Shown one piece after another: positions 16,312 to 59,861 of a stretch of 61,625 nucleotides of DNA. The stretch is from assembly GCA_945860125.1 (NCBI GenBank), contig CAMAPQ010000003.1, positions 1 to 61,625 of the forward strand, read 5' to 3'. Each line of letters opens with the position of its first letter. The stretch's first letter is position 1. Made by a program: the position numbers and the translations under genes. The notes below the pieces were generated by a model that was not told the origin of the DNA, ran no database searches, and saw nothing but the letters and a program-made list of their open reading frames with translations. The DNA comes from Klebsiella pneumoniae (lineage in GTDB: Bacteria; Pseudomonadota; Gammaproteobacteria; Pseudomonadales; CAMAPQ01).

Positions 16312-16320
16312 GAGCAAGGA

Positions 16321-19900: not shown

Positions 19901-20484
19901 TAATCAGCATAACTACTGCCATGCGCTTTAAGCTCAACGACATATTGATTATCGTGTTTAAAGTGCCCTTCTTGAAGAACCCATTTTTCTTCTACCCAAT
20001 GCCCCAAAAAATACAGATCCTGAAAATTAAGGGTGTTATTTTTTTTATGTAAGACAACCGACTTAATATTAATATCGCCAACATCAAATAAAAAAGGCAA
20101 TCTTAATGCAGGTAATTTTATGCCATAAAAAATATTCTCAAAACTCTTTTTTTTATCTGATTCTTCAAAAAACAACTCAAGCTGATCCAGCCATAAATGA
20201 TCAACAGAAACTCTGCCTACCAATAAATCAGACAGATTTGCTTTAAAATACAGATGATCAATATAAAGTGAGGATAAAGATGACTCATTAAAAGAAACTG
20301 AAACACCACTTAAAGATAAACCGGTTAATAAGGAACCACTCATATCTTCAATGACAAAAGGCGCTTTTTTTTGCCCCGAAACTTTATAAAAAAATTGAAC
20401 GCCAAATTCTGTGGCAAGAAAAAGCCACAGCATAAAAAAAATAAAGAAGCCTAAGAAAAAAATACTTTTGAATAGCCGCATCAT
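16972..20484 (-). CDS. tamB: translocation and assembly module TamB
   Basis: N-terminal TM, long beta-rich repeats, DUF490-like C-terminus (GQYTAWGQ, YQLSSKWYLEAVSG); follows tamA. Confidence 0.88.
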   Translation of the reverse strand: MMRLFKSIFFLGFFIFFMLWLFLATEFGVQFFYKVSGQKKAPFVIEDMSGSLLTGLSLSGVSVSFNESSLSSLYIDHLYFKANLSDLLVGRVSVDHLWLDQLELFFEESDKKKSFENIFYGIKLPALRLPFLFDVGDINIKSVVLHKKNNTLNFQDLYFLGHWVEEKWVLQEGHFKHDNQYVVELKAHGSSYADYPFYAEARVVFDESLIERLPVKFSQPDINQLKLILKGDINKVQSEINSEGIFNFSAVGTLHPKKEKLPFEFTYHFSLPAFSSSQGIGLNQVTGEGDLNGHLGVINLTTTGDLIVREGEVHPYHLQAKITPKNIDYSAIINSLYGNMAVTGNYHPTLIKGALDIAFYQFSFSEFLPLREIKVDGLLSADFTLGKNASFDLQGEHFNGFLMGKPFDFSFDANWKKDKPLILDHFLLSYGAQELRVKGSLKEVWDVQGDLKDFDLAVFNREIKGKLTGHIDVKGLFAEPDITAVISSAKIKSAFFSSNKEARFNLVMKKLGQTQLEGSLFFSEFVLQKWHGERFDLQFSGNQREHQLTAKFVGDHVRGELLSQGRIASDVYHLTVQSLPIEYKKLKWDVKKQAIFEWAFLAEKASLSMLCLINDVSEFCADYVLKDKLHTFNFSSAMADLSLLNNEESLWLFGGAATAKGRAILGENQPFVIEGVADGAQLSVKNDSSVSPIFFDQLHIESHFDKAKWEVKGVLASHDKPLANAHFWIDNNALRTLGGDLTINHISLAPYALFFEENDKLGGTLNAQIRLGGQLASPEFYGILAVEQGLFALPRYKVSLENIQLKSILKGKSAGVDAQYQVAEAKGMVKSDIDWSEVGLPKINAQITGNRFHFVYDLPSEFWISPNVNFSMNAEKIKLEGDINIDQAKVIKRGGSQKIGLSKDVVVLEEEFSHPATLAQLGTFDLNVGLHLGKKTVFDVYGAKGRLEGQLRLSHRKNKIQANGVLTVAEGQYTAWGQELKIRKGSIDFNGPLDRPMIEIEAVREVKRDNLLAGLLLQGSAQNAVSHLFYEPLDTDEPLSQVLNDQQILSYILLGRSTFRQQDSGAQNQEQTLMTQAAVALGLKGGKSLVGRTPDKWGLKEVEIDTSGSGSELQVTVGKEISEDLYIQYAKGVFAPISQTILRYQLSSKWYLEAVSGLDQALDLIYSISF

Positions 20485-20486
20485 AA

Positions 20487-22268
20487 TTAAAACTCAGGCC
20501 CCATCGTCAAATGGAACCGAATATTTTTTTCAAAATCCAAAGGATAGGCCACATCCAAACGAATAGGCCCCAAAGGGGAATACCATCTTATACCAGAACC
20601 TATGGCTGTTTTTGCCTCAATTTTATTCGTAAAAGCAGAGCCGCTATCTGCAAAAAAAGCAACTCTCCAACGACCAATAAGCGGTTTTTCATACTCAACA
20701 GAACCTGCCACCAAGTAACGCCCACCTTCCAACAAACCAGAAGTTTGATTTGTAACGCCAAGCGACTCAAAAGAAAAACCCCGCACTGAGTGATCCCCTC
20801 CCGCACGAAATCTAACTGTTTCAGGTAAATCAGACACTTCGCTTTCACTCACAACCGCGCCCCACTGAAAACGAGAAATCAGGCGATTTTCTTTTGAAAC
20901 TTTTTTAATCCATCGATTTAACCCTGTCAAACGTAAATAATCATGATCACTACCCCATGCTCGCGCACTGGTATCTAACTCATAATGCTTTAAATTACCC
21001 TCATTGATTATCAACGTGCCATCCTTGCTCACCGCTTCAAAATAAATACCTGGCACAATCGAAATAGAAACATCCTCTAAACCATCATTAATAAACTCAT
21101 CTTTTGCAAGTTTAATAAAGCGTCCCATCATCCAGCCTGACTCAAAATTTTTAACTTTTTGAAAGTTCAGCGAAGAAGTTTTTGTATTTAAAATATCATC
21201 AGTTTTATGCGCAGCCCCTATTTCATAATATTGAAGAAAATCATTCAACACAGGTATTTGATAACGTGTTTCTAAAATATTTTTCTTGGCAGATAATTTC
21301 GTTTCCACCAAAACAGAATGGCCTTTATCGCTCACCCATGGCTGACGCCAACCAAAAGAAACACGCGGGCCGACATCGGTTGCATAACCAAGCCCTACCT
21401 TAAGGGTTCGTCTAGACTGCATAATGACTTCTATCTTAAGAGGAAGCGTTTCACCGCTTACTTTTTCAAAGTCAGGATTTATTTTTACCTGACTAAAATA
21501 ACCTGTTTTTATTAAGCTCAAACGATATTGAGCTAGCTCATCAGCTGTATAATAATCACCCATTTTAAAGGGTAATCTTTGATGAAAAATGGCTTCACGT
21601 AATAAGGAACCTGTAATAACCAAAGAAGAAATACGATATCGTTTACCACTATCAAACAATAAAGTAATGGATGCCGTTTTTTTCTCTAAAGAAACATTTA
21701 CCTTCTTTTCTTTAAATTCAGCATCAAAATAGCCTCGCGCTAAAGCAGCATTCAAATAATTTTCTTTCAGCTGCTCATACTTACCATGATGAAAAATATC
21801 TTTCTCTTTGATAGGCGCATTTTTACCCAATGCTTTAAAGGCAGGATCAGACAAAGCATCGCCTTTGACGACTAAAGCTAAAACATCAATTCTGATGGGC
21901 TCGCCTAAGACTAGCTGTATTTTTATTTTGTTTTTCTTTTCTAATTTTTCAAAAGAGACATCACACTCAGCAGCATAATAACCCAATGATTTTAACGCAG
22001 CTAAGCACGTCTCTTCACCTCTTTCGCGAATAAATGTTTTAGTAATATTTTTTTGCGCTTCTTCAAGATAAAAACGAATATTTTCTTTTGTTTTTTTATT
22101 GCCTTCGCCTGTAAATTCCCACTCTAAAGGTTTCAATTTTTTAGGCGCTTTTACTTCTTCTGCAACTTTTACTTCTTCTGCAACCGTAGCGTATGAAAAA
22201 ATTAAACCATAAAAAAATAACAGGCAAAAAAAAATATCTTTAACAATTGCTGCCAAGTCATTACACAA
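20487..22268 (-). CDS. tamA: translocation and assembly module TamA (Omp85 family)
   Basis: POTRA (ALARGYFDA), GYATDVG, RFRAGGDHSVRGF, RWYSPLGPIRLDVA. Confidence 0.93.
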   Translation of the reverse strand: MCNDLAAIVKDIFFCLLFFYGLIFSYATVAEEVKVAEEVKAPKKLKPLEWEFTGEGNKKTKENIRFYLEEAQKNITKTFIRERGEETCLAALKSLGYYAAECDVSFEKLEKKNKIKIQLVLGEPIRIDVLALVVKGDALSDPAFKALGKNAPIKEKDIFHHGKYEQLKENYLNAALARGYFDAEFKEKKVNVSLEKKTASITLLFDSGKRYRISSLVITGSLLREAIFHQRLPFKMGDYYTADELAQYRLSLIKTGYFSQVKINPDFEKVSGETLPLKIEVIMQSRRTLKVGLGYATDVGPRVSFGWRQPWVSDKGHSVLVETKLSAKKNILETRYQIPVLNDFLQYYEIGAAHKTDDILNTKTSSLNFQKVKNFESGWMMGRFIKLAKDEFINDGLEDVSISIVPGIYFEAVSKDGTLIINEGNLKHYELDTSARAWGSDHDYLRLTGLNRWIKKVSKENRLISRFQWGAVVSESEVSDLPETVRFRAGGDHSVRGFSFESLGVTNQTSGLLEGGRYLVAGSVEYEKPLIGRWRVAFFADSGSAFTNKIEAKTAIGSGIRWYSPLGPIRLDVAYPLDFEKNIRFHLTMGPEF

Positions 22269-22286
22269 AGCTCTCTTGCCAAAAAA

Positions 22287-23009
22287 CTATCGACTTGTTT
22301 CATTCACCCAACCTTGAACGACTGGCATTGAAAATATATGGCCATTAAAATTTAAGATAACGCCACTTTCAGTAATTTCAACCAACATAAGCCCTTCTTC
22401 AATAAACTCGCCTTCCTTCAATAACTGCCCATTCACAATCACAGAGCGAAAGGGACCATCAGAAGAATACATATGCGAATCAAAATGAAGTGAAGGCAAA
22501 GCAGATTGAACGGCTTTAGGTAAATCATAAGGAGAAGGCAGTTTATTAGGCTCTTCTTCATCTACTTGCAGACTTTCAGCGTAACGACGTGACTGTGGGC
22601 CTATTGTTTCAAACTGCGCCTCATCATTTACGATTTGCGTTTGTTCTGGCGCATTATTATGCGTTCTAATCACTGCCTTGGCTGTCACAATTTCGCGCTC
22701 TTGCTGATAATTTTTCTGTAGTGCCACAGGTGGCTTTGCTTGAGCTTGTACGGGCGCCAAAGACTCCGATTTAATCGGCGCTGACAATACCGCTTCCTGC
22801 GCTTGGGGCACTTTAGACTGATACTTCCAAAATAAATAACTCGCAAAAAAACTCAAGTTCAGTAAAAGCAAACCCATGAAAAACCAAGCCCAAATATTAC
22901 GGCGGTTTCTTTCAGGCAATACAGCGGACTCAATCGAATAAAAATTAGGCGACTCGCTTTTTTTACGGTCCTGCTCAGATTTTTTAAGCGCTTCTAAAAT
23001 ATATGACAC
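22287..23009 (-). CDS. exeB: type II secretion accessory protein ExeB/GspB
   Basis: SYILEALKKSE N-terminus, single TM, C-terminal SHMYSS..VIVNGQLLKEG; follows exeA. Confidence 0.85.
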   Translation of the reverse strand: MSYILEALKKSEQDRKKSESPNFYSIESAVLPERNRRNIWAWFFMGLLLLNLSFFASYLFWKYQSKVPQAQEAVLSAPIKSESLAPVQAQAKPPVALQKNYQQEREIVTAKAVIRTHNNAPEQTQIVNDEAQFETIGPQSRRYAESLQVDEEEPNKLPSPYDLPKAVQSALPSLHFDSHMYSSDGPFRSVIVNGQLLKEGEFIEEGLMLVEITESGVILNFNGHIFSMPVVQGWVNETSR

Positions 23010-23031
23010 ACTCACCCTCACTATCTTTTAT

Positions 23032-23072
23032 CTTTATTGTGACGCCTCTGGAACAATTTTGCGTAAGTCCTA
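23032..23072 (-). repeat. truncated family B element
   Basis: GACGCC..CTGGAACAATTTTGCGTAAGTCCTA, one end only. Confidence 0.8.
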
Positions 23073-23078
23073 ATAACG

Positions 23079-25037
23079 TTACTCGCTAATGGTTGGCGCT
23101 GTTTTATCACCTCTTAGTGACAATAGAATAAAAGTATTAATGCCCACCATGCCATCCGGCTCTAACCCCACTGAAGCTTGGAACGCTTTCACACGCTCAA
23201 CAAGAGGCTGGTCATAAGTAGCTACTTCACTCTCAATAGCTTGATTGGGCCCTAAGTTAGCGCCATGGTTAGCCTGCCCACCATCCCATTGGGCTAATTG
23301 CGCTTCTAGCCAAACAACCATTTTTCCTTTTGCACCAGGTGACAAAGTCCCTTTAAAGTCAGCGGGCATTTTCCATAATAGGAGATAATCCCGCGTCCAG
23401 TAACGCTGCAACTCTCTGATAGGCACCAAGTATTCCTGACCTTCAATTATCAACCGCACATGAGTATGGCTCAACCCATTTAATAACGCATAACGCGTTC
23501 TCGATCCAAAACTTGTTTTATCTACATTTACGAGTTTCATCACGATAGGCATGTTAAAAATCGCTAAAATATTCAGATCGCCTTGACGCGACAAACAAGT
23601 TAAGCCGGCTGTTTGTGCAGATAAACAACGCATTTGCCAAGCTTCAGACTCAGCAAAATAGCCAAAATCAGCTCTACTTTGACTTAACGAGGAAGCGTCA
23701 GACAAAAGTAAGTTTCCTTCTTCTAAAGCGTGCGTATTAATGGCAGGGCTTCCCCACTGCATAAACAAGCTTTGCCATGCTGCTTCAGAACTAGATGATT
23801 CTGAAATATTTGTACTTTCAAAAATCTTATAAAAATTATGACTGAATTTTTTTTCTTTAGAGGGCGCCGTTTCTTCAATAGCGGAACTATTAATGGCAGA
23901 ATTAATGACAGGATTAATGGCTGGCTTCTCTAAAATGGGCAATGTCGATTGAATAATTTCACTGGGCAATGGCTGACTTAACGCATTATTTTCCTTACCA
24001 GATAAATCAGCAGGCAGCGGCGATGAAATGACAGCAATAGGCTTTTTTACCTCCTGCAAAGCAGTTTTCTCTTTAATAATTTGGGGCGAATAAAGCTGCC
24101 ATTTTGTTTTTAATTTTTCTTTGATTGGCTCATAAATTTTCATGCCTGAATAAATAATGACAGCTAAAAAGAGCAATCCTAATAAGCTCGTCGTTATTTT
24201 AATCAGTATTTTTACGGTATTCGTTCGTTTAATACCGAGCAGTTCTTGAGCTGCTTTTTTTACAATTTTACCGTCAATTATCCACTCATTACCAGCATAA
24301 GCACCCAGTAACGCTCTATCGCACAAACTATTGATAATTCTAGGCACACCTTTGGAGTAAAAGAAAATTTTCTTTATTGCACTATCAGAAAAAATACCAC
24401 TTCGCCCTCCCGCAACAATTAAACGATGGCGAATATATTCCGCTACATCTTTTTCAGTTAAAGAGACCAGGTGATAACGCGCTGTCACGCGCTGCGCAAG
24501 CTGCCTTAAGTTTCGCTTCTCAAAACGTTCGCGTAATTCTGTTTGGCCAATTAATACAATTTGCAAAAGCTTTCGATCATTCGTTTCAAGATTCGTTAGC
24601 AAACGCAATTGTTCTAAAACACTATCAGAAAGGTTTTGCGCCTCATCCACAATAAGTAAGGTACGCATACCTTGGGCGTGATTTTCTAATAAACGCTTAT
24701 TAATGAGATCAACATATATTTTGGCTGAAGTCTCGCTTTTGGGATGCGTAATTTTTAACTCGTCACAAATAGAAGCAAGCATTTCAATAGCATTCATTCG
24801 AGGATTTAATACAAGGCAAACTTCGGTTTTTTCAGGTACCTGATCTAGAAAGCAACGACATAAAGTTGTTTTCCCAGTACCGACTTCACCCGTAATAACG
24901 ATAAAACCATTATCACTTTGCACGCCAAAAAAAAGATGCGCCAAAGCTTCGTGATGTTGATGGCTCATATATAAATAAGCAGGATTAGGCGCGATGGTAA
25001 AAGGCTTTGCTTTAAAACCAAAATAAGTTTCGTACAT
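23079..25037 (-). CDS. exeA: ExeA/GspA AAA ATPase with C-terminal peptidoglycan-binding domain
   Basis: MYETYFG..PFTIAPNP, TGEVGTGKTT, IVDEAQ, LRLLTNLET, TM, VKAFQASVGLEPDGMVG. Confidence 0.92.
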   Translation of the reverse strand: MYETYFGFKAKPFTIAPNPAYLYMSHQHHEALAHLFFGVQSDNGFIVITGEVGTGKTTLCRCFLDQVPEKTEVCLVLNPRMNAIEMLASICDELKITHPKSETSAKIYVDLINKRLLENHAQGMRTLLIVDEAQNLSDSVLEQLRLLTNLETNDRKLLQIVLIGQTELRERFEKRNLRQLAQRVTARYHLVSLTEKDVAEYIRHRLIVAGGRSGIFSDSAIKKIFFYSKGVPRIINSLCDRALLGAYAGNEWIIDGKIVKKAAQELLGIKRTNTVKILIKITTSLLGLLFLAVIIYSGMKIYEPIKEKLKTKWQLYSPQIIKEKTALQEVKKPIAVISSPLPADLSGKENNALSQPLPSEIIQSTLPILEKPAINPVINSAINSSAIEETAPSKEKKFSHNFYKIFESTNISESSSSEAAWQSLFMQWGSPAINTHALEEGNLLLSDASSLSQSRADFGYFAESEAWQMRCLSAQTAGLTCLSRQGDLNILAIFNMPIVMKLVNVDKTSFGSRTRYALLNGLSHTHVRLIIEGQEYLVPIRELQRYWTRDYLLLWKMPADFKGTLSPGAKGKMVVWLEAQLAQWDGGQANHGANLGPNQAIESEVATYDQPLVERVKAFQASVGLEPDGMVGINTFILLSLRGDKTAPTISE

Positions 25038-25168
25038 TATTCATCTCTCGTATGGGCATTCAAGGTGATGAGTATTCTAATACTAATTTCATTTTCATGT
25101 TAATTGTGCTGCGCACCGTTACACGAGAAGGAGAGAGGCAGCCCAAGAGGGGAATTTTATTTTTGATG

Positions 25169-25296
25169 TATACCCTTCGTACTTGAAACCACGGCATTGT
25201 TGGCTTCCGCTCACTCACCCCAATCACATAGTTTATCTATGCTCATGGGGTTCACGCTCTTGCCGCCTCACCGTGATTCCAATTACTTTGGGTATA
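25169..25296 (-). repeat. ERIC-like repeat, copy 3 (overlaps the 3' end of the adjacent CDS)
   Basis: reverse-complement copy of the 127-bp element. Confidence 0.9.
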
Positions 25297-25846
25297 TACG
25301 TACTTCTACGGGTAGTTTTGCAATTCTTTCACAAAGGCGAGCATCTCGCAAAAAAGGCCACCAATCATATAAAAAAATTTGAAGGGGTCGCCAAAACGCA
25401 ACCCACCCAATAATGAGCAATCCTTCACGTAACACATCTGCCCCACCGCCCAACACAGGCAGTAATTTAATTAACGCAACACAAAAAGTAAGAAATACTA
25501 AACCAATAACTAAGCTTATCTTGCCATCTCGCAAAATATTTCTTAAGTGTTGGCGATGGACAAGCGCACGATACGTAAAAAAATAATTAATTGTTTGTTG
25601 AATCATCGCTTCAGTATTGTTTTCAATATCAGAAGGCAAATAAATAACAAGTTTTATTTCTTCAAGAAAATATAATTCTCGCATTGAATCCATTAACCAT
25701 TCAACAGCTTCATCATCGAGATCACGACTATGAAAAGGGGAAGGATCAAGCGAATTAAAAAATTGATTTATATTTGAAAGTTTGAGCTCGATCAGTCTCA
25801 ACTTACCTTCACGTCGGTAAGCATGAGCAGGTGAAAGTTTATGCAT
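25283..25846 (-). CDS. hypothetical membrane protein (2 TM segments)
   Basis: 187-aa ORF, FNSLDPSPF..RDLD, two hydrophobic segments, GWVAFWRP..IFLYDWWP. Confidence 0.75.
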   Translation of the reverse strand: MHKLSPAHAYRREGKLRLIELKLSNINQFFNSLDPSPFHSRDLDDEAVEWLMDSMRELYFLEEIKLVIYLPSDIENNTEAMIQQTINYFFTYRALVHRQHLRNILRDGKISLVIGLVFLTFCVALIKLLPVLGGGADVLREGLLIIGWVAFWRPLQIFLYDWWPFLRDARLCERIAKLPVEVRIYPK

Positions 25847-25906
25847 TAGTTAAAACCGCCATATAAAGCAGAACAATTAAATTCATTTAATTATAGATTA
25901 ATTATA

Positions 25907-26129
25907 TTGACCAAATAAAATAATGGGGGTAGCCTCTGAATCAAGCCATTTTTGTGGTTATTCTCGCCAGCAACACTGCTGCAAAAACCGGCGCTCTTAT
26001 AGTAACCCATAACGTTATAGTAAGCGCGCATAGCGTTACTTGTTCATTTCTTCTTTTAGCCTGAAGTCACCCAATTAAAATAAGTTTCCGCCTTTTTAGT
26101 CTCTCAAGTTTTTTATTCTTTTTACAAGG
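25907..26129 (+). promoter_or_regulatory. sigma70-like promoter plus ~200-nt leader, copy 1
   Basis: TTGACC-17 bp-TAGCCT, then a sequence near-identical to 28792-29015. Confidence 0.75.
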
Positions 26130-26139
26130 CGTTAGGGAA

Positions 26140-26214
26140 ATGAGCAAATTGCATTCAGTAAAATTATTTTTCATAGGTTTGATAACTAATCAGTGTCTAC
26201 TAGAAGGATCATGA
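26140..26214 (+). pseudogene. 24-codon relic of the PEP-CTERM gene (5' end joined to 3' end)
   Basis: MSKLHSVKLFFIGLIT resembles MMNRLHLVKLILIGLT of 29023; ends LLEGS* versus LLSEGFA*. Confidence 0.6.
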
Positions 26215-26217
26215 GCC

Positions 26218-26721
26218 ATGAGAAAACTATACTTACTCAACTTTAAAAAACTTTTAATTACGATAGGATCAATTTTAATAATATGCCTACCGCCAATCAT
26301 TTTACCAGCTTATTCAGCAGAGACTGCACCCACTCTTAAATCGCTAAATGAACGGATTGGCCGTCAATATGGTCGAATGGACACTCTTCACTACAGGTTA
26401 GAATTAGTCTTCAGAGAAGGTTTAGGATCTTATATAGGACTAGATACTGGATGGCAAGGAATTGATGATAATCAGTGGAAAGATATCTACCTATTGGAAA
26501 GCGATAGGCCGGGCTGCTCAGAGGTGCGGTGCGATATTTTTCTTCAAATGAAAAAAGCTGATGATCAAACAATCATCGGTGGGCCTATTAAGGTAAATGA
26601 CTGCGAAGTTAATTGGATTCTTGACGGCTCGAAAATTAAGCTGGATTTCTTAGCTTATGATCTGTGCTTATCTACTTTTAGCAGTTACAGAATCATCGTT
26701 AAAATCAATCATAATGGGTAG
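26218..26721 (+). CDS. secreted protein, paralogue family P1
   Basis: signal peptide AYSA, coiled coil, GLDTGW, 4 Cys, GGPI, NW, YRIIV. Confidence 0.85.
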   Translation: MRKLYLLNFKKLLITIGSILIICLPPIILPAYSAETAPTLKSLNERIGRQYGRMDTLHYRLELVFREGLGSYIGLDTGWQGIDDNQWKDIYLLESDRPGCSEVRCDIFLQMKKADDQTIIGGPIKVNDCEVNWILDGSKIKLDFLAYDLCLSTFSSYRIIVKINHNG

Positions 26722-26807
26722 TGGGCTCTGATAAAGATTTTATTAGGTTTAATGTATGGGTAATTTTAAGTTAAGTTCAATTATTTTTTTCCAAAAGGAT
26801 TTAAATC

Positions 26808-27326
26808 ATGAGTCATCACTCTTTATTGAAAAAATGCAACATTTTCATCATTCATGCGCTCACTTTATTTAGCCTTTTACTGACATTTTCACAGGCTCAT
26901 GCAGCCACCCGCCCCTCTCTTCAGAGCCTGACAAATGAATTAGAAATGCAGGAAAAAATGATGATCGGCTTTCAAGCTGAGCTTGAAAGAATTAGCGACA
27001 GATATATGGGTTCATATATCGCCTTAGATACTGGATGGCAAGAGAAAAACAACACTAATTTATTTGAAATCAATCATGGACAAGCTTCAGTTGGATGCGA
27101 TCAGCTGCGGTGCGGTGTTCACTTACAACTTAAAAAAGTGAATGAATCACTGGTAATCGGTGGCCCTATTCACTTTAACTACGCCATAGATAGTTGCCAG
27201 GCAAATTGGGCATTAGGGAGCGATAGCAGACACATCCAATTTATTGGTCCTTCCGATAGTTGCGCTTCAAATCTCAGTGAGTATCGAATTATTGTTGAAG
27301 TTTTTACTACGACACCGATAAACTGA
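26808..27326 (+). CDS. secreted protein, paralogue family P2
   Basis: AHAATRPSL, ALDTGW, CGVHLQLKK, GGPI, CQANW, YRIIVE. Confidence 0.85.
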   Translation: MSHHSLLKKCNIFIIHALTLFSLLLTFSQAHAATRPSLQSLTNELEMQEKMMIGFQAELERISDRYMGSYIALDTGWQEKNNTNLFEINHGQASVGCDQLRCGVHLQLKKVNESLVIGGPIHFNYAIDSCQANWALGSDSRHIQFIGPSDSCASNLSEYRIIVEVFTTTPIN

Positions 27327-27354
27327 GATCTGAACAAAATATAAATACTACCTT

Positions 27355-27481
27355 TATACCCAAAGTACTTGGAATCACGGTGAGGCGGCAAACAAGTGAA
27401 CCCCATGAGCATAGATAAACTATGTGATTGGGGTGAATGAGAGCTGCCAACAATGCCGTGCTTTCAAGTACGAAGGGTATA
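27355..27481 (+). repeat. ERIC-like repeat, copy 4
   Basis: full 127-bp copy TATACCC...GGGTATA. Confidence 0.92.
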
Positions 27482-27536
27482 GATCGTCAGTATTGATTCG
27501 TGAATAAATCAACTTTCACTTGGAGTGTTGCATGCC

Positions 27537-28058
27537 ATGAATATTTCTATTTTTTTTCAGGTTAAAAAATTTTCAGCCGCGATAATTTTAACTTTAACAG
27601 TATGTTTATTAGTAATTTTTTCACGTGCTTATGCTGCAGAAACAAGGCCTTCTTTGAGTGGGTTGCAGAATAGAATTAATGCTCTTGAGCTTCGAGTAAA
27701 CGATTTATTTATTGACCCCAACCAAAGACTGTATGGATTATATACTGGGTGGGCATATATTTTTGACACAACATGGAAAGAAATTAATTTCAGTCAATCT
27801 TCTACTAAAAGCTGCGTGAATACACCAGATAAAACTGCGCTTTGTATTGTTCACTTACAGCTACGAAAAGCAGATGGATCAATGGTTGGTGCACCTATAA
27901 CCTCGGGGAAAGAATGCTCAGCTAATTGGACAATAGATAACGAAGGGAAAAAAATTATGCTTAACGATACAGGTTGTTTGTTCTCATTAGGGTTTACGCA
28001 TTTTCGAATGATCGTTGAAATATTGCCGCCACCTAAACTGCCGGAAAAGTTAGATTGA
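27537..28058 (+). CDS. secreted protein, paralogue family P3
   Basis: AYAAETRPSLSGLQ, GLYTGW, CIVHLQLRK, CSANW, FRMIVE. Confidence 0.85.
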   Translation: MNISIFFQVKKFSAAIILTLTVCLLVIFSRAYAAETRPSLSGLQNRINALELRVNDLFIDPNQRLYGLYTGWAYIFDTTWKEINFSQSSTKSCVNTPDKTALCIVHLQLRKADGSMVGAPITSGKECSANWTIDNEGKKIMLNDTGCLFSLGFTHFRMIVEILPPPKLPEKLD

Positions 28059-28117
28059 TTTTACAAGTTAAATATCGGGTTATATTTAATATGGTTTTAA
28101 TTAAAAGGATGTGAATC

Positions 28118-28651
28118 ATGAATAGCCTATTCTATGTTAGATCAAAAAAAGCATCTATTTTTTATTCAATAACTTTTATTGTGTTATTTCTACCTTTACT
28201 CGCGAGAGCCGAAATAACTCAGCCTACCATAAAAAGCCTGCAGGAGAAGCTTGATAATTTAGAATTATTCTTTACTACTTTTCTTGAGAAACAGTATAAA
28301 ATTATCTTTGGGTTAGACACACAGTGGCAAGGCGTTAGTTACCCTTATTGGCATAATATTGATTTCAGTCAAACTAATATTTCTAACTGCTCAGACCTGA
28401 CCGATTTAAATAATTTTGTTGTACCCACACCCTGCATTGTTCACTTCCAGCTACAGAAAAAAGATAATAAAGATGACTCAGTTATCAGCGGCCCGATCAA
28501 AATAGGAGAATGCTCACCCAATTGGATGATCGATTCTACAGGCACTAAAATTATACCAACTTATTCAAATTTTGACGCTTGCTCAGCTATTTTTAGTCAC
28601 TACAGACTAGTTGTTGAAATTTTGCGGCCACAGGCTAATGCCGGATTATAG
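28118..28651 (+). CDS. secreted protein, paralogue family P4
   Basis: ARAE..PTIKSLQ, GLDTQW, CIVHFQLQK, SGPI, CSPNW, YRLVVE. Confidence 0.85.
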   Translation: MNSLFYVRSKKASIFYSITFIVLFLPLLARAEITQPTIKSLQEKLDNLELFFTTFLEKQYKIIFGLDTQWQGVSYPYWHNIDFSQTNISNCSDLTDLNNFVVPTPCIVHFQLQKKDNKDDSVISGPIKIGECSPNWMIDSTGTKIIPTYSNFDACSAIFSHYRLVVEILRPQANAGL

Positions 28652-28676
28652 CGCGCATCTTATTTTCTAAAATTTT

Positions 28677-28715
28677 CAAGCCTCATTTTAATTATCAATG
28701 GGGCTTGTTAAGTTT
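28677..28715 (+). terminator. probable terminator after P4
   Basis: CAAGCCTCATT/AATGGGGCTTG hairpin followed by T-rich sequence. Confidence 0.6.
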
Positions 28716-28791
28716 ATGGCTTTTATTTTTCAACTTTTATACCGTAAAAAATTTTCACGATTTTCGAAAAAAAATAATCCTTAAAAAAATA

Positions 28792-29015
28792 TTGACTAAA
28801 TAAAACAACAGGAATAGCCTAACAATCAAGCCATTTTTGTGGTTATTCTTGCCAGCAACACTGCTGCAAAAACCGGCGCTCTTATAGTAACCCATAACGT
28901 TATAGTAAGCGCGCATAGCGTTACTTTTTCATTTCTTCTTTTAACCTGAAGTCACCCAATTAAAATAAGTTTCCGCCTTTTTAATTTCTTAAGTTTTTTT
29001 ATTCTTTTTACAAGG
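28792..29015 (+). promoter_or_regulatory. sigma70-like promoter plus ~200-nt leader, copy 2
   Basis: TTGACT-17 bp-TAGCCT; leader near-identical to copy 1; runs into AAGGAG RBS of 29023. Confidence 0.75.
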
Positions 29016-29022
29016 AGCTAGA

Positions 29023-29844
29023 ATGATGAACAGATTGCATTTAGTGAAATTAATTTTAATAGGCTTAACGACAATATTAATGTGTCATAAAACATTCGCC
29101 ATCCCCATAAGTTTTGATAATGAAGCCAACTATCTTTGGGCTGCCAACGCACTCGTAAGCGACCCAAGGCCTCCCAAAAAATACCTACTTAATACCGCCA
29201 ATTTAGACAGAGGTGGTCAGGGATTGCCATTCCAATCGAGTCTCACACTTAGCTCTGGTCATCAAACGATTAGAACCCGTGGTTTTAACACAACTTCAGG
29301 AGATTATTATTTTGGTGCAAATGACCCTGATAATTACAATCAATTTTCTGATGGTGATGTTTTATCGTATAGCTATTCCAACCCAAGAAACCCTTGGGCA
29401 TCTAAAATGTTTGGTGTAGGGATGCATTTTATTTCTAGTGATCTTTTGGAAAAAGATGATATTTCAATCACTATTCCAAGCCTAAACAATCTCATTATTG
29501 GTAATACGATTAATCATCGTATTTTAGCAGATGGTGGTTTTGCATATTATACTGGGCTACTTATTGATGATAATCTTTTTAATTTTAATCCCAATGGATA
29601 TTTTTTCAATCAATTTTCTATTAGTTTTAAAGATGACAAGGCAATTAATTTTTTCTACAACATCGATGATATTTCGCTTATAAGAGCCGTGCCAGAACCC
29701 AGTATTCTCGCGTTATATTCTATTTCATTATTGATGGCAGGCTTGTTTCATTGGCGATCAAAACGAACGATAGCGCAAAAATTTTTACAAATTTTTAGTT
29801 TTAAAGTGCGCAAAAACCAACTTTTATCGGAAGGATTCGCCTAA
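29023..29844 (+). CDS. PEP-CTERM sorting domain protein
   Basis: signal peptide (TFA-IPI), NIDDIS then VPEPSILALYSISLLMAGLFHWRSKR. Confidence 0.88.
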   Translation: MMNRLHLVKLILIGLTTILMCHKTFAIPISFDNEANYLWAANALVSDPRPPKKYLLNTANLDRGGQGLPFQSSLTLSSGHQTIRTRGFNTTSGDYYFGANDPDNYNQFSDGDVLSYSYSNPRNPWASKMFGVGMHFISSDLLEKDDISITIPSLNNLIIGNTINHRILADGGFAYYTGLLIDDNLFNFNPNGYFFNQFSISFKDDKAINFFYNIDDISLIRAVPEPSILALYSISLLMAGLFHWRSKRTIAQKFLQIFSFKVRKNQLLSEGFA

Positions 29845-30329
29845 TGAAAAACTCAATATCATTTAGTTTCAGAAAATTTTTGCATGGAATAATTTTTATT
29901 TTCTTAACAAGCTTACTGCCTATTTTTTCGCAAACTTATGCAGCTGAGCCGAGACCTTCATTAAGCGGGTTGCAGAGCCAGCTTAATGCTCTTCAAGAAG
30001 AGGTTAGACTTAATAAAAGAGTGATCGGCTTAGATACAGGATGGAAGTATTATGGGGGCGAGTGGGAAGATATTTCCTTTGCACAAGGTTACGGTGCTAG
30101 TTGCTCACCAGTATACGGATATTCACGCTGTATTGTTCATCTTCAATTTGAGGGATTTTCTGGAGTTGTTGGAGGAGAAATACTGGGCGTGGACGGCGGG
30201 GGAAATATTTGTGCGCCCAATTGGATAATGAATTACAACGGAACACGCATCGTTATCGATAGCTCATGCAAAGCATATATCAATCGCTTTAGGATTATTG
30301 TAGAACTTTTACCGCTAGACCAGATTTAG
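29844..30329 (+). CDS. secreted protein, paralogue family P5
   Basis: TYAAEPRPSLSGLQ, GLDTGW, CIVHLQF, CAPNW, FRIIVE; TAATG coupling to the PEP-CTERM gene. Confidence 0.85.
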   Translation: MKNSISFSFRKFLHGIIFIFLTSLLPIFSQTYAAEPRPSLSGLQSQLNALQEEVRLNKRVIGLDTGWKYYGGEWEDISFAQGYGASCSPVYGYSRCIVHLQFEGFSGVVGGEILGVDGGGNICAPNWIMNYNGTRIVIDSSCKAYINRFRIIVELLPLDQI

Positions 30330-30390
30330 ATTTTTGATAGTAAATTTTCATGATTATGCTACGCAAACTTTAGAATCATTTGACACATAT

Positions 30391-30427
30391 AAAAGATGCC
30401 TCCTAGATTAACAGCGAGGCATCTTTT
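30391..30427. terminator. bidirectional terminator
   Basis: AAAAGATGCCTC...GAGGCATCTTTT between convergent genes. Confidence 0.75.
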
Positions 30428-30489
30428 ACAGACGGAATACTCGCGAAAAGTAAAATCCGACAAGCTAAAGACAAGCGGAAAATTAAAAA

Positions 30490-31287
30490 TCAACTCTTAT
30501 GCTCCATGAGATATTTATCGATAATTCTTGATGTTTCATACTTATAATCAATTTGAGAGGAAGGCCACCCCTTCCAAAACTGACTACTCTGAATAATTTC
30601 CCAACGCGTTTGAATATCTTTAATCGAACAATCCTCTCTGTAAATACCAATAACATCCAAAATCAGTCCGAATCTGGAATCACCATTCGCTTTTATATAG
30701 AGACTATTAAGAAAGGTAGGATCTGAAAAACATTCGATAACAAAAGAAGTTAATTTATCCATACGACACCATCTTGCAAACATAGCTATTATTCCAGGTG
30801 GCGTATAATTTACGTTATATTCAAGTGCTAACCTGAAGGCTCGATTGTCCCGAGCCAACAGCATAAATTCAAATCCTCTTCGATCATTTTTATCATCCAA
30901 ACGATCTACTTTTCGCCCTACAATATCGAATAGTTGGAGAATATCATTATGCACAGGATGATTATTTTTTCCCCAGCGTTTACTTTTTTCAATATAACTT
31001 GCCCATTTTTTTAGGAAAGGCTCGGCATTAACTTTATTGAGGGCAGTAGAAAATATTTCAAAAGGATGACGACTTGTACTGGATGCCAAATCGGTATTCG
31101 ACTTATTTGTGACTTCATATATTGGACCCATAAGTATGTTGAGCTCATTTTGAGATTCAACCATTTTTGGATTAAAAATAGATAATATAAACCATACCGT
31201 TTTTCTAAAAAATTCAAGCGATTGTTTTGGATAAGCATAGATAAGTATCGCACCGACAATAATCACAATCCAAATCATAATGATCAT
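30490..31287 (-). CDS. hypothetical protein with N-terminal membrane anchor
   Basis: 265-aa ORF, GGAG upstream, hydrophobic N-terminus; no family recognised. Confidence 0.7.
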   Translation of the reverse strand: MIIMIWIVIIVGAILIYAYPKQSLEFFRKTVWFILSIFNPKMVESQNELNILMGPIYEVTNKSNTDLASSTSRHPFEIFSTALNKVNAEPFLKKWASYIEKSKRWGKNNHPVHNDILQLFDIVGRKVDRLDDKNDRRGFEFMLLARDNRAFRLALEYNVNYTPPGIIAMFARWCRMDKLTSFVIECFSDPTFLNSLYIKANGDSRFGLILDVIGIYREDCSIKDIQTRWEIIQSSQFWKGWPSSQIDYKYETSRIIDKYLMEHKS

Positions 31288-31372
31288 TTCTCCACTTTAA
31301 TTCAAAATAGGTTCATAGCTAGGCGCGGAGGTATGTCAATTAAAATAAATCCTGTATCGCTTAAGATACACC

Positions 31373-31460
31373 TCTTTTAAATTGTAATCCTAATGCATTT
31401 TTCTATTAATTTTAAAGATGACAATCCAATTAATTTTTTCTACAACATCAAGGACATCTT
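31373..31460 (+). pseudogene. degenerate fragment of the PEP-CTERM gene
   Basis: ttctattaattttaaagatgacaatccaattaattttttctacaacatc matches about 29616-29664 with few mismatches. Confidence 0.7.
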
Positions 31461-31594
31461 GATCATAAATTACCTTAAAATATTTTTTTCAGTTTTTACT
31501 CATTTTTAGGCAACAAATCGACGTGTAAAGCATGCCTTCATAAATAATTTTCCTTTTAATATGAGCGAATCACAGGTTCTGTATGCAGTATGTC

Positions 31595-31639
31595 GTGGTC
31601 TAATGAAGTGTGCGGTGGTCTAATGAAGTGTGCGGTGGT
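31595..31639. repeat. 20-bp tandem duplication GTGGTCTAATGAAGTGTGCG x2.25
   Basis: read directly. Confidence 0.85.
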
Positions 31640-31741
31640 AACGCATAGCATCACAAAACAAATCACAGAATGCAACTAAAACATAATGCTAATTTAAAGC
31701 ACCTAATGTTTTATTTATTTTGGCGGCGTAAATATTAATAA

Positions 31742-31845
31742 TAGGACTTACGCAAAACTTTCCTAGCAAGGCGTCGCGATGAAGGCAGTACAAGTCGTAC
31801 GACTAAGCGCGATAACAAAGCTGGGGCAGTTTTGCGTAAGTCCTG
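31742..31845 (+). repeat. family B element, copy 3
   Basis: TAGGACTTACGCAAAAC...GTTTTGCGTAAGTCCT. Confidence 0.9.
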
Positions 31846-32071
31846 AATAAATCAAAAATGACGCTGGTAAAAGTGAGTGATCCCCTGCATCTTGCCGATG
31901 ACTCGGCAAGATAAAAGCTAAACGGCTTCAATGATGTGCTTCATGAATTGCAATCGTGTACTTGAACGTTACCCTTTCCCACTATCAGCCATACAAGACA
32001 TTCCAGTGCGATCCCCAGGAAGTTTTGGATTATTTTGAAAGGTTAGAAGCCCTTGCGTTGAGCTCAGGTTA

Positions 32072-32512
32072 TTAAGATTCTTCCAATAAAAATGTAACAG
32101 GGCCGTCATTTATCAAAGACACCGCCATGTCCGCACCAAATTCACCAGTTTGAACATTAAGGCCGCTATCTTCAAGCGTATGAACAAAAAGATGGTAAAG
32201 CATTAGTGCATGATCAGGTAAGGCTGCAGTTGAAAAACCAGGGCGATTACCTTGGCGTGTATTCGCAACCAAAGTAAACTGCGAGACAACTAATATGCTC
32301 CCCTGAGAAGCTGTAACGCTCAAATTCATTTTGTCATTATTATCAACAAAAATGCGATAAGCCAGAATGCGCTTAGCAAGCTTTACCGCTAAAGCTGCTT
32401 GATCAATTTTCTCAACACCGACAAAAACTAATAATCCTTGATCAATTTTACTTTTCACACATCCCTTAATGCAGACTTCAGCCTGCGTCACGCGCTGAAT
32501 AAGTGCTTTCAT
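32072..32512 (-). CDS. dtd: D-aminoacyl-tRNA deacylase
   Basis: MKALIQRV, KMNLSV, VSQFTL, GEFGADM, NDGPVT. Confidence 0.97.
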   Translation of the reverse strand: MKALIQRVTQAEVCIKGCVKSKIDQGLLVFVGVEKIDQAALAVKLAKRILAYRIFVDNNDKMNLSVTASQGSILVVSQFTLVANTRQGNRPGFSTAALPDHALMLYHLFVHTLEDSGLNVQTGEFGADMAVSLINDGPVTFLLEES

Positions 32513-33132
32513 AAACCCTGCAATTCTTTTACTAGTGAATCAAGATGATCCTGCTCTTCTTTATCACTTGAAGAATCACGTGAAGAACGAGGTTTAGCAG
32601 ATTGAGCAGGAACAGCAGAAGACGGCACACCTGAACTACCTGCACCTGAACCTAGCTGGTTACTCATAAACTGATCTAACTGCTGCATAATGAGCTGAAT
32701 ATTTCGCGTTTCTGTGCCGGGGGGAATGTTCGCGTTATAGTTTTGAAAATGTTTCTGCGCCAACATTAAATGAACAATCGCAATATTAAAATGTGCTTTT
32801 GCATTCGCAGGCACCAGCGCGAGTGTTTTTTCATAATATTCTTCTGCTTTTTTTAATGACTCTTTTTTAAAGGCAATATTACCCAAGCGATAATAAACAA
32901 TAGGCTCTTGAGTGCTTTTTGCAGCTAATTTAGAATAAATGCTTTCAGCTTTTTCCAAAGAGCCCAACGCATAAAGTTGATCTGCTTCTTTCATTTCAGA
33001 TTGAAAAAAATCAGAAGGATTATTCTTAGGATCATGATCAACCACTTTAATTTTTTTCAAAGAAACACAGCCTGAGCATAAAGAAAGCATTAAAAATAAT
33101 GCAACGACTTTAAAATTAATCATTTTTCTCAC
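32509..33132 (-). CDS. TPR-containing lipoprotein
   Basis: lipobox LCSGC, TPRs (YYRLGNIAF, AHFNIAIVHL). Confidence 0.8.
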   Translation of the reverse strand: MRKMINFKVVALFLMLSLCSGCVSLKKIKVVDHDPKNNPSDFFQSEMKEADQLYALGSLEKAESIYSKLAAKSTQEPIVYYRLGNIAFKKESLKKAEEYYEKTLALVPANAKAHFNIAIVHLMLAQKHFQNYNANIPPGTETRNIQLIMQQLDQFMSNQLGSGAGSSGVPSSAVPAQSAKPRSSRDSSSDKEEQDHLDSLVKELQGL

Positions 33133-33171
33133 CTTTCACAAACATTAAACAGTGTAAATTAAGTAATAAAA

Positions 33172-34803
33172 TTACTTCTGAGATTTTGGCGGTATGAAAG
33201 AAGGCGCACCAGCATTAGGTTGTTGATATTGATACCAGGCTAATTTTGATTGCGCTTTTTGCGCTAAAGCATGCTCTTGCGGCAAAATTTCAAGCACTTC
33301 TTGCCAATATTTTTTAGCACTTTGAATATTAAGATCTTCATTATCTTCAGCAAGACTCATTAGTTTTTCCGCGCGACCAACTGTTTTTTTTACCATTTTA
33401 TGTGCAATGCCACTTTCACTGTCCTCCACTTTTGCCGCCGCCTCACGCAAACTAAAAGCTTCAAGGTGTTGTTCATGCTCTTCTAGTTTTTCTGCGCGCA
33501 CCAATAATGCTTCAACAGCAATTCCCTTTACTTCAAGTGCGTATTTACTTGAAGACTCACCCAACACATTTTTTTCTTCTTTTAAAAAATTAAGCCAAGC
33601 TTTAAAAGCAGCATCTTTATTGCCTGAACGATATAATTTATTACCACGCTCATATTGTGAAACTAAATCACCAAACATCTCTATCTTTTCTCTTAAGCGT
33701 GTTTTATCAGCACTTGAAACGGCTGCTTCCTGCACCAACTCTTTAGCCTCACTTATAATTCTTTTACCCTCACCCGCTAAATATTTATCATCAAAGTTAC
33801 GCACCAATACCCTCGCCCTTTGAGCCTGATCAAGCTCTAACTCATCAATACTTTCTTGCTTTTTTGAAATAGGCTTTTCTTGTAAAAAACTATTCTGATC
33901 TTTCATAAAAGGAGAAGCATTTTCAACGCTTACTTGCGAAGCAGTGGATGGCTTATCGGGCGCAATTAAAGGGGGAGATTTTTCCAACTTTGAGCCTGTT
34001 TCTTCAGAATTAAACTCAGGAACTATCTGCCGGGTTACTTCAACAGGCTGAGTTTTGGTAACAGGCACAGATTCATCTATCGATATAGCATTAAAGGTAG
34101 ACTCTATCTCTGCGGCAGCACTCACATTTTCGGTCATATCTTCAGATTGAGGCGGTAAGCTAGACTCTTCAGCCTTACGCGCTTTAGCTGCTAGCGCTGC
34201 ATCTAATACTTCCTCTGCTGCTGCTTTTCTATTTGCTGCCTTTTGATCAGGCACAAAAAAAGCGGTTGAGTCCTGAGCTTCATCTTTCTTTTTCTGTGCT
34301 TCTACTTGCGTAGCAAGCTCAGACTCATCACCCGTCAACCAATCTTGTTGTAATACGGTAAAAACAAGAACCATAACGAGACTCGTTACAGCAAAAACAA
34401 GCGTCATTAAAAATAAATTCAGCGCCACTTTTTGGTGACGGCTAGATTCAACTTTTTCAACTTGATCAATAGTGCCACGAGATGACGCTTCCTTTATTAA
34501 TAGTGTATTTTCTTGATAAAAATACTCTACAGCGTTCACTCTGACTGTATCGCCATCATTTAAAACAAAGTTTGTTACTTTGAGATTATTAACCCATAAC
34601 CCTAGCGTTAAGCTTTCTGCACGCACCATTGTTCTTGAATACTGACGTGAAAACTCAATACCATTTTTAAAGGGTTCATCAGGATCAATACAAGCTACTA
34701 GCACGCCAAATTTTTCCACAAATCTTGCTGGAAAACGACCAATAAAGGTTGTTTCACCCAACTTAATATTTAACAAACTTGCCAAATAGTTATTATTTGC
34801 CAC
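33172..34803 (-). CDS. bitopic membrane protein with degenerate FHA-like N-terminus and helical/TPR-like C-terminus
   Basis: TFIGR...GLWVNNLKV...LNDGDTVRV, single TM, low-complexity linker, helical repeats. Confidence 0.65.
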   Translation of the reverse strand: MANNNYLASLLNIKLGETTFIGRFPARFVEKFGVLVACIDPDEPFKNGIEFSRQYSRTMVRAESLTLGLWVNNLKVTNFVLNDGDTVRVNAVEYFYQENTLLIKEASSRGTIDQVEKVESSRHQKVALNLFLMTLVFAVTSLVMVLVFTVLQQDWLTGDESELATQVEAQKKKDEAQDSTAFFVPDQKAANRKAAAEEVLDAALAAKARKAEESSLPPQSEDMTENVSAAAEIESTFNAISIDESVPVTKTQPVEVTRQIVPEFNSEETGSKLEKSPPLIAPDKPSTASQVSVENASPFMKDQNSFLQEKPISKKQESIDELELDQAQRARVLVRNFDDKYLAGEGKRIISEAKELVQEAAVSSADKTRLREKIEMFGDLVSQYERGNKLYRSGNKDAAFKAWLNFLKEEKNVLGESSSKYALEVKGIAVEALLVRAEKLEEHEQHLEAFSLREAAAKVEDSESGIAHKMVKKTVGRAEKLMSLAEDNEDLNIQSAKKYWQEVLEILPQEHALAQKAQSKLAWYQYQQPNAGAPSFIPPKSQK

Positions 34804-35114: not shown

Positions 35115-35164
35115 GAGTGAATGAGCTCGGCCAACAATGCCGTGTTTTCAAGTACGAAGGGATA
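35115..35164 (+). repeat. partial ERIC-like repeat (3' part)
   Basis: GTGAATGAGCTCGGCCAACAATGCCGTGTTTTCAAGTACGAAGGGATA. Confidence 0.85.
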
Positions 35165-46777: not shown

Positions 46778-46780
46778 ATC

Positions 46781-59855: not shown

Positions 59856-59861
59856 GATAAC

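Follow-up and report, generated by a model that had tools for sequence, protein, structure and literature searches.

Why are two stretches of non-coding DNA nearly identical when the genes that follow them are not? The question was raised by a window of 61,625 nt (the whole stretch of DNA analysed) from an uncultured lake bacterium, in which both operons next to these stretches encode secreted or surface proteins. Two copies were located, copy A at 25904-26204 and copy B at 28789-29090, and both comprised a TTGAC(C/T)-N17-TAGCCT promoter-like site, a leader of ~200 nt, and ~20 codons. A pattern search of the 2.58-Mb genome on either strand found TTGAC[CT]-N17-TAGCCT at 25907 and 28792 only. 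The twin promoter and leader reported in a preliminary description of this DNA were therefore both recovered, but the ends it assigned (25907-26129 and 28792-29015) were too short, since the homology reached about 65 nt farther, into coding sequence.

Segment-wise comparison indicated that the identity between copies A and B was a mosaic. The 60 nt upstream of the copies agreed at 28/64 positions, which is background, with unrelated 60-mers being 45% ± 4 identical. In the promoter part (25904-25938), 26/35 positions were identical, and the differences sat in the spacer, as had been described, and just past the -10 element. The core that followed (25939-26098 versus 28824-28983) was identical at 157/160 positions, with mismatches at 25965, 26042, and 26059 only, which confirmed the reported near-identity after the promoter. 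Identity was 32/42 in the distal leader (26099-26139), 48/66 in the first ~21 codons (26140-26204), and 29/64, again background, past these codons. The homologous flanks of the core were identical at 106/143 positions (~74%), and the difference between core and flanks was significant (Fisher p = 1.4e-10). The high identity was equal across predicted stems, loops, linkers, and the unstructured tail of the core. The core borders were fairly sharp, at 25939 and about 26098, and the window was rich in dispersed repeat families, both of which would suit a core that is a separate item (a small mobile element, say, or a small RNA gene in its own right), landed twice or made separately, with the duplicated genes incidental. 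We regard this as very improbable, in that the genome held two copies only, both placed alike with respect to homologous flanks, and the flank homology went on at 74% on either side. No terminal inverted repeats were found, and the plasmid and phage collections contained no match to the leader. The features of the locus are collected in the table.

Table. Coordinates of features at the duplicated promoter-leader locus (window positions)
Feature	Position	Strand	Remarks
Promoter-like site A	25907..25935	+	TTGACC, 17 nt, TAGCCT; A/T-rich stretch upstream
Leader A, predicted 5' UTR of ~197 nt	25939..26139	+	near-identical core 25939-26098
Hairpin P1	25944..25959	+	-5.4 kcal/mol; at most 2 nt from the predicted RNA 5' end
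Hairpin P2	25966..25982	+	CAGCA/TGCTG palindrome; -5.9 kcal/mol
Hairpin P3	25991..26029	+	14 pairs; -13.9 kcal/mol; region 25988-26032 z = -3.3
Alternative weak terminator-like hairpin and U-rich run	26019..26040	+	-6.9 kcal/mol; scan site 26023-26037
Stub ORF, 24 codons	26140..26214	+	first ~21 codons homologous to signal peptide of 273-aa gene, 48/66
Small secreted 4-Cys protein gene, first	26218-26721	+	paralogue
Small secreted 4-Cys protein gene, second	26808-27326	+	paralogue
Repeat element	27347-27483		between second and third small-protein genes
Small secreted 4-Cys protein gene, third	27525-28058	+	paralogue
Small secreted 4-Cys protein gene, fourth	28118-28651	+	paralogue
Likely terminator of unit A	28677..28707	+	11-bp hairpin, then U-rich run
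Promoter-like site B	28792..28820	+	TTGACT, 17 nt, TAGCCT
Leader B	28824..29022	+	same P1-P3 at +2885
PEP-CTERM-like protein gene, 273 aa	29023..29844	+	signal peptide; VPEPS, hydrophobic span, and RSKR at residues 222-248; then 25-residue tail
Small secreted 4-Cys protein gene, fifth	29844..30329	+	paralogue; start overlaps stop of 273-aa gene
Likely two-way terminator of unit B	30390..30428	.	strong hairpin, A-run before, U-run after
Fragment of another PEP-CTERM-like gene copy	31390..31473	+	61% over residues 195-222, E = 1.1e-4; 85% DNA identity

The five small-protein genes all fell in this locus, as did the only full-length copy of the 273-aa gene. The genes directly downstream of the two copies were not paralogous, so that the preliminary description of diverged downstream paralogues applied instead to the five small-protein genes, which were strongly diverged (29-43% amino-acid and 51-55% DNA identity). 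In unit A, the stop codon of the stub sat 3 nt before the start codon (ATG) of the first small-protein gene, and the same cassette would thus now drive a four-gene operon. The end of the stub resembled the end of the 273-aa gene, mostly through the GAAGGAT ribosome-binding site that the small-protein genes have in common; for this reason the likeness was dropped as proof of an in-frame deletion. The 273-aa protein is called PEP-CTERM-like here, as it scored 13.4 bits against PF07589 (cut-off 20.7) and 14.0 bits against TIGR02595 (cut-off 16), with E = 0.0025 against the PepA model. Its structural model was unusable (pLDDT 32); that of the small protein reached pLDDT 66 and had no fold match in the PDB at E <= 0.001. 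Small proteins of this kind are also encoded by relatives (P0006, P0007, and the 95%-identical P0003). The clustering of these genes and the extra fragment at 31390-31473 pointed to repeated duplication and decay. Each unit ended in a terminator-like hairpin, and both surrounding stretches folded better than most shuffled sequences (28645-28740, z = -2.7, 1/200 shuffles equally good; 30325-30450, z = -2.9, 0/200).

The promoter-like site matched the σ70 consensus at 5/6 positions in the -35 hexamer, TTGAC(C/T), and at 3/6 in the -10 hexamer, TAGCCT (T1, A2, and T6), with a 17-nt spacer, which placed it below the threshold of the consensus scan. Both hexamers were unchanged around the diverged spacer, a pattern that would be difficult to account for if they did not form a promoter. 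The core started 4 nt past the -10 hexamer, at about the expected transcription start, and on these positions transcription would begin near the 5' border of the core, at about 25942 in copy A and 28827 in copy B. The motif was rejected as a regulon signal because its near matches elsewhere in the genome fell in coding sequence.

The leader was structured in its 5' part. Its first ~100 nt folded better than shuffled sequences (z = -2.7, 3/300 equally good), the 3' 100 nt did no better than shuffles (z = +0.7), and a tail of ~110 nt was unstructured and U/A-rich. The hairpins of the preliminary description were present, as was its direct repeat, two TTATAGTAA inside P3 (25997-26005 and 26015-26023, 18 nt apart); the pairing GCCATTTTTGTGG/CTGCAAAAACCGGC was possible but absent from the minimum-energy and centroid folds. 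The 3' arm of P3 and the hairpin at 26019-26040 were mutually exclusive, with a U-rich run after the latter. Such an arrangement, together with a structured 5' part and a core that begins at the predicted +1, could mean that the leader is a sensing cis-regulatory RNA, attenuator or riboswitch-like, in which a ligand, protein, or small RNA shifts P3 versus 26019-26040, and both units would then be regulated together. This is quite unlikely in our judgement. The terminator-like hairpin was weak (-6.9 versus -13.9 kcal/mol for P3) and its U-run was interrupted, and terminator-like sites were not commoner than in shuffles (5 versus 4.0 ± 1.9). No leader peptide with a ribosome-binding site was found in the leader. 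A coding reading of the 36-codon GTG ORF at 25954-26064 was rejected, as it lacked a ribosome-binding site and showed 1 synonymous versus 2 non-synonymous differences between the copies.

Searches for relatives of the leader also argued against sensing. Rfam 15 gave no match in either leader at E <= 10, and the 10 matches in 20000-35000 were all outside the leaders, which agreed with the preliminary description that no known riboswitch was recognised. The further copies for which it had proposed a BLASTN search did not appear: the genome itself contained two, with the other 38 listed matches being 41 nt or shorter at E >= 0.0065, BLAST found homologues in 0/60 relatives, and none of 400 order-level genomes gave a credible one (a single 24-nt pyrimidine-tract match, E = 4.6e-4 per genome, was taken as chance). 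With no homologue in the searched genomes and collections, there was no covariation to count. A covariance model of the leader (R1), which scored its own copies at 159 bits, found nothing credible in 150 order-level genomes; eight matches had E 0.2-0.9 (20.7-22.8 bits), and among the four of these inspected, two were inside ORFs, two were intergenic, and none preceded a similar gene. In metagenome contigs, the hairpin pattern had 0 matches, and of 189 pattern stretches picked up with the 273-aa protein, 0 were confirmed. In genome contigs, 44 stretches from the small-protein alignment likewise yielded 0 confirmed, and the two-repeat pattern occurred in at least 120 stretches, in which leader BLAST found nothing beyond the 27-28-nt pattern itself. 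The eight sequencing runs listed included none recorded as RNA. Contigs from four runs that matched 25000-28788 were short, low-depth pieces of the same organism only. One of 204 nt (depth 2.7) combined letters of the A and B types over the identical core and may be an assembly chimera.

BglG-type antitermination was considered from a resemblance only and rejected, since the 96.8%-complete genome had 0 matches to CAT_RBD, the BglG-type RNA-binding antiterminator domain; an ANTAR search also gave 0 matches, but its control was silent too. What stood of the earlier proposal of a cis-regulatory RNA or operator array was its broad part, in that promoter-like hexamers and a long non-coding leader precede two units, whereas the missing Rfam match and homologues and the weak terminator spoke against a riboswitch or attenuator. 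A regulatory RNA specific to this lineage has only a slim chance of being correct as well. Here the P3/terminator-like switch would be read by some factor and would co-regulate the two surface-protein operons outside the PrsR/σ54 circuit, by which exosortase cargo is normally controlled, and the copies would stay alike through selection for identical regulation. A leader that did act as a switch would add a new regulatory RNA to the control of surface-protein expression, but the present evidence does not require one.

The plus and minus strands folded equally (-27.2 versus -26.5 kcal/mol), so that RNA hairpins were indistinguishable from DNA palindromes. Equal folding is what DNA palindromes would give, the direct repeats were 18 bp apart, and the control regions upstream of PEP-CTERM genes are DNA sites, as known from the text of Haft et al. 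2006 (PMC1569441). The core could accordingly act at the DNA level, with the CAGCA/TGCTG and 39-bp P3 palindromes and the two TTATAGTAA as operator or activator sites and the real promoter nearer the gene, for instance at TAAAAT (26076-26081), which was kept in both copies and could be a -10 element. We consider this reading unlikely. Sequence inspection found no acceptable -35 element 16-18 nt before TAAAAT, and hexamers kept around a diverged spacer favored the upstream promoter. The motifs were not repeated genome-wide as a regulon needs, with CTTATAGTAAC occurring 3 times and GTTATAGTAAG 2 times.

The known regions upstream of PEP-CTERM genes weighed in the same direction. According to the text of Haft et al. 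2006 (PMC1569441), they consist of motif 1, a spacer of ~63 nt, the σ54 motif 2, ~71 nt, and the start codon; motif 1 has 17 nt ending in TTTACA and lies 32-92 nt upstream of motif 2, which bears GG at -24 and GC at -12, at a mean distance of 71 nt upstream of the start codon. We searched for these features as that text gives them. No GG-N10-GC was present on the + strand of 25847-26145 or 28652-29030, neither leader had a σ54-like site scoring 8 or more of 12, and TTTACA occurred in the two upstream regions only at 26121 and 29007, beside the ribosome-binding site 13-14 nt before the start codon. A σ54/PrsR box was therefore rejected for both leaders. GG-N10-GC does occur upstream of the other PEP-CTERM gene of this genome, on contig C8, and the genome encodes an exosortase (TIGR02602, 138.9 bits, above 105.55), PrsR (TIGR02915, 581.2 bits, above 502.6), and RpoN (TIGR02395, 478.9 bits, above 277.35). 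The locus thus adds an exosortase-cargo-like gene without a σ54/PrsR box in a genome having PrsR, and the text of Haft et al. 2006 (PMC1569441) flags regions without this box as an open class.

We favor, at about an even chance, an old duplicated expression cassette with a constitutive leader, whose core was homogenised by gene conversion. The cassette would run from a σ70-type promoter through the ~200-nt 5' untranslated leader to a ribosome-binding site and start codon, and would belong to a lineage-specific unit in which a small secreted 4-Cys protein comes after a PEP-CTERM-like surface protein. This unit was duplicated, probably long ago, and the surface-protein gene of copy A would since have been reduced to the 24-codon stub, which is probably translationally coupled to the first small-protein gene. 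Gene conversion between direct repeats 2.9 kb apart may have been the main keeper of the central 160-nt near-identity, while the promoter spacer, the part beside the ribosome-binding site, and the stub would have drifted to about 74%. The leader RNA is most likely constitutive; P1 at its 5' end, with P2 and P3, may protect the message from 5'-end-dependent decay, and the ~110-nt tail would be a ribosome landing region.

With selection alone, the loops and linkers of paralogous functional RNAs are not normally preserved to this degree, and such identity is typical of conversion tracts. Conversion would explain the 98% identity over stems, loops, and tail beside 74% flanks without a sensing role, and this identity, taken alone, does not speak for a sensing RNA; nor does near-identity between two copies within a genome speak for a structured RNA. 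A pair of sequences from a single genome would look alike under gene conversion and under very strong purifying selection, and the three core mismatches indicated that any conversion was not very recent. Together, our results illustrate how an expression cassette in its entirety, with promoter, long leader, and start, can be reused upon gene loss, and how a non-coding tract can stay identical next to genes that diverge almost to background.

Concerted evolution of duplicated bacterial sequences by gene conversion is known from tufA/tufB and the rRNA operons. As in those systems, a near-identical tract lies here within older, more diverged, close direct duplicates; unlike in those systems, the presumably homogenised tract is a non-coding leader and the adjacent genes retain little more than background identity. 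The 5' UTR of Escherichia coli ompA stabilises an abundant envelope-protein mRNA, and AU/U-rich leader enhancers are bound by ribosomal protein S1. The leaders here resemble these in that a stem-loop occupies the extreme predicted 5' end and the ribosome-binding site of a secreted-protein gene is preceded by an unstructured U/A-rich stretch, but there is no sequence relationship, and a stabiliser role would follow by analogy only.

The text of Haft et al. 2006 (PMC1569441) reports over 200 nt of non-coding sequence upstream of >65% of PEP-CTERM genes, with many long upstream regions falling outside the σ54 class. Similarly, 371 nt of non-coding DNA lie here between 28651 and 29023, the host has exosortase, PrsR, and RpoN, and the region was copied between neighbouring genes; the leaders differ from the σ54 layout in having σ70-like hexamers instead of -24/-12 elements. 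As outlined in the text of PMC9850573, pepA of Aquincola tertiaricarbonis is RpoN-dependent, with an upstream intergenic region of ~85 nt and a mapped start behind -24/-12 motifs. In contrast to pepA so described, the gene studied here has a ~200-nt leader and no -24/-12 motifs, and it shares with pepA, a surface-protein gene of the PEP-CTERM type, the arrangement of a separate promoter region and a likely stem-loop terminator downstream.

On reading 25700-29400 and aligning its two similar stretches, we found a two-copy repeat (copy A and copy B) comprising a promoter-like site, a leader and the first ~21 codons after it. The same repeat was recovered independently as family D3/D6 by a repeat search of the window. 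Similarity began abruptly at 25904 in copy A and 28789 in copy B, and ended near 26204 and 29090. Background was taken as the identity between unrelated 60-mers from the window (45% ± 4). The core, a leader tract mismatched solely at 25965, 26042 and 26059, was far more alike than its homologous flanks (Fisher p = 1.4e-10), and identity was at background outside the repeat. The duplication of promoter-like site and leader in the preliminary description was therefore real.

Features of the duplicated locus and of the repeats and genes near it (A, copy A; B, copy B)
Feature	Position	Remark
60 nt upstream	25844-25903	A vs B 28/64, background
Promoter part	25904-25938	A vs B 26/35
Core	25939-26098	A vs B 157/160
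Distal leader	26099-26139	A vs B 32/42
First ~21 codons	26140-26204	A vs B 48/66
Beyond coding homology	26205-26264	A vs B 29/64, background
Hairpin P1	25944-25959	-5.4 kcal/mol
Hairpin P2	25966-25982	-5.9 kcal/mol
Hairpin P3	25991-26029	-13.9 kcal/mol
Stub, 24-codon ORF	26140-26214	downstream of A
Four further small-protein genes	26218-26721, 26808-27326, 27525-28058, 28118-28651	after stub
Terminator-like hairpin	28677-28707	end of A unit
273-aa protein gene	29023-29844	downstream of B
161-aa secreted protein gene, four conserved cysteines	29844-30329	start overlaps stop of 273-aa gene
Terminator-like hairpin	30390-30428	end of B unit
Fragment of another 273-aa gene copy	31390-31473	
Dispersed repeat, ~125-137 nt	5649-5785, 16177-16313, 27347-27483, 59721-59857	
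Same family, further positions	25166-25297 (- strand), 35117-35161, 46778-46884	
Second dispersed repeat	16868-16990, 31741-31863, 52412-52534	
Third dispersed repeat	49557-49658, 58502-58603, 59568-59669	
TamA-like, GspB-like, GspA/ExeA-like genes	20487-25037 (- strand)	just upstream

In the promoter part, both copies kept the hexamers TTGAC(C/T) and TAGCCT, and differences were confined to the 17-nt spacer and three bases 3' of the -10. The composite TTGAC(C/T)-N17-TAGCCT occurred at these two places only in the 2.58-Mb genome. Conservation of the hexamers around a diverged spacer argues for a real, long-maintained promoter, which would place the RNA start at ~25942, coinciding with the beginning of the core.

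Three hairpins were predicted in the first ~100 nt of the leader, with two TTATAGTAA repeats located in P3. Folding of this part exceeded that of shuffled sequences (z = -2.7, with 3 of 300 shuffles folding as well; z = -3.3 for the P3 region). Beyond it, ~100 nt of U/A-rich sequence were structured at chance level (z = +0.7), and the whole leader was unremarkable (z = -1.5 and -2.1 for the two copies). An attenuator that senses a signal is quite unlikely: the alternative hairpin with a U-rich run (26019-26040) was weak at -6.9 kcal/mol, and terminator-like sites were not enriched (5 vs 4.0 ± 1.9 expected). The reverse strand folded as well as the forward one (-26.5 vs -27.2 kcal/mol), so that folding alone cannot separate RNA hairpins from DNA palindromes; an array of DNA operators, with the promoter nearer the gene, is an unlikely reading of the core.

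Neither leader matched Rfam even at E <= 10. The riboswitch-like RNA proposed from the sequence was neither supported nor refuted. BLAST found the two copies in their own genome and none in 60 relatives, all of the same order only, the window's genome being the sole representative of its family in the comparison. Among 400 order-level genomes there was one 24-nt pyrimidine-tract match, taken as chance. When the first 124 nt were built into a covariance model and scanned against 150 genomes, eight gave noise-level scores of 20.7-22.8 bits. Nothing similar emerged from the metagenome and species-genome collections, scanned with the proteins and, among the matches listed, with leader patterns, or from plasmids and phages compared with the leader by BLAST; that the leader is a separate element or a small RNA gene is highly improbable. 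Metagenome runs with sequence of the organism came from lake water and freshwater sediment; none was recorded as RNA, and the contigs of four runs offered nothing beyond short fragments of this sequence at low depth. One 204-nt contig from another lake sample, covering 25906-26109, switched from copy-A letters at its 5' side to copy-B letters at its 3' side, and represents a recombinant allele or else a chimera formed in low-depth assembly across a 76-nt identical stretch.

The expectation of diverged paralogues downstream held for the five secreted four-cysteine small proteins (29-43% amino-acid and 51-55% DNA identity among themselves), but not for the genes adjoining the leaders, which are the stub in copy A and the 273-aa gene in copy B. 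The first ~21 codons of the stub were homologous to the signal peptide of the 273-aa protein, and its stop was separated by 3 nt from the ATG that opens the series of four small-protein genes. All five small-protein genes and the only full 273-aa gene were at this locus. The small proteins (tandem paralogues of 161-177 aa with GLDTGW and NW motifs) had no match in Pfam or NCBIfam, nor in a PDB fold search using a structure model of pLDDT 66. A profile of the five recovered seven matches, two clearly from other organisms, among 1.84 billion representative proteins, and the 273-aa protein recovered itself alone among 5.8 billion; by these searches both are orphans too. In addition to a signal peptide, the 273-aa protein carried a module of VPEPS, hydrophobic span and RSKR (residues 222-248); it scored below cut-off for PF07589 (13.4 vs 20.7) and TIGR02595 (14.0 vs 16), with a weak match to the flocculation PepA model (E = 0.0025). 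The module, normally the end of a PEP-CTERM protein, was followed by a 25-residue tail after the basic cluster, containing the RBS of the next gene.

One copy of the ~125-137 nt family (27347-27483) lay in the gap after the second small-protein gene, and two copies matched Rfam V_AS5 (Vibrio RNA AS5) sub-threshold (62.8 and 49.9 bits vs a gathering score of 96). The second and third families were ~100-123 nt long with 65-93% identity. In the GspA/ExeA-like protein, a peptidoglycan-binding C-terminus was combined with an ATPase domain at the N-terminus; similarity of the latter to the XrtA-associated ATPase stayed below cut-off (264.9 vs 324.5 bits).

Flank divergence of ~26% indicates that the duplication is old, and the core has therefore been homogenised or held under very strong constraint. 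Because identity was equally high across stems, loops, linkers and the unstructured tail, we consider gene conversion the likelier cause, acting between the direct repeats, which lie 2.9 kb from each other; selection on the leader may contribute. We picture an old family of tandem units, each with a leader, a surface-protein gene and a small-protein gene. One unit would have lost its surface-protein gene body, leaving the stub with its start, leader and promoter. We infer, by comparison with the leaders of envelope-protein genes, a constitutive 5' UTR, in which protection of the mRNA would come from the extreme-5' stem-loop together with P2 and P3, ribosome loading would be aided by the U-rich tail, and translation of the four-gene operon would be coupled to that of the stub.

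Over 65% of PEP-CTERM genes have more than 200 nt of non-coding DNA upstream. Most such proteobacterial regions contain motif 1 ending in TTTACA, followed after a spacer of ~63 nt by a sigma-54 motif of the -24/-12 type, which itself lies ~71 nt from the start; PrsR is the proposed regulator, and many genes have upstream regions outside this class (Haft et al. 2006, PMC1569441). The start mapped for Aquincola pepA lies behind -24/-12 motifs (PMC9850573). The window's genome encodes an exosortase, PrsR (above cut-off) and RpoN. Its leaders lacked the defining features of the published region, since GG-N10-GC was absent from the coding strand of both and TTTACA occurred solely 13-14 nt ahead of the start. 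A single PEP-CTERM match in the genome exceeded the cut-off (21.9 bits), at 14463-15110 of contig C8. The ~200 nt upstream of that gene held T-rich TTTAC(A/C) motifs and one GG-N10-GC site, GGTTTAAATCTTGC; downstream of this sigma-54-like site, ahead of the start, lay sequence similar to the ~125-137 nt family. The C8 gene thus fits the published PrsR/sigma-54 layout, whereas the window's PEP-CTERM-like gene does not. The two-copy repeat is best described as a promoter-leader cassette that was duplicated and probably homogenised by conversion; its locus is lineage-specific and resembles exosortase cargo, and it has no canonical sigma-54 box.
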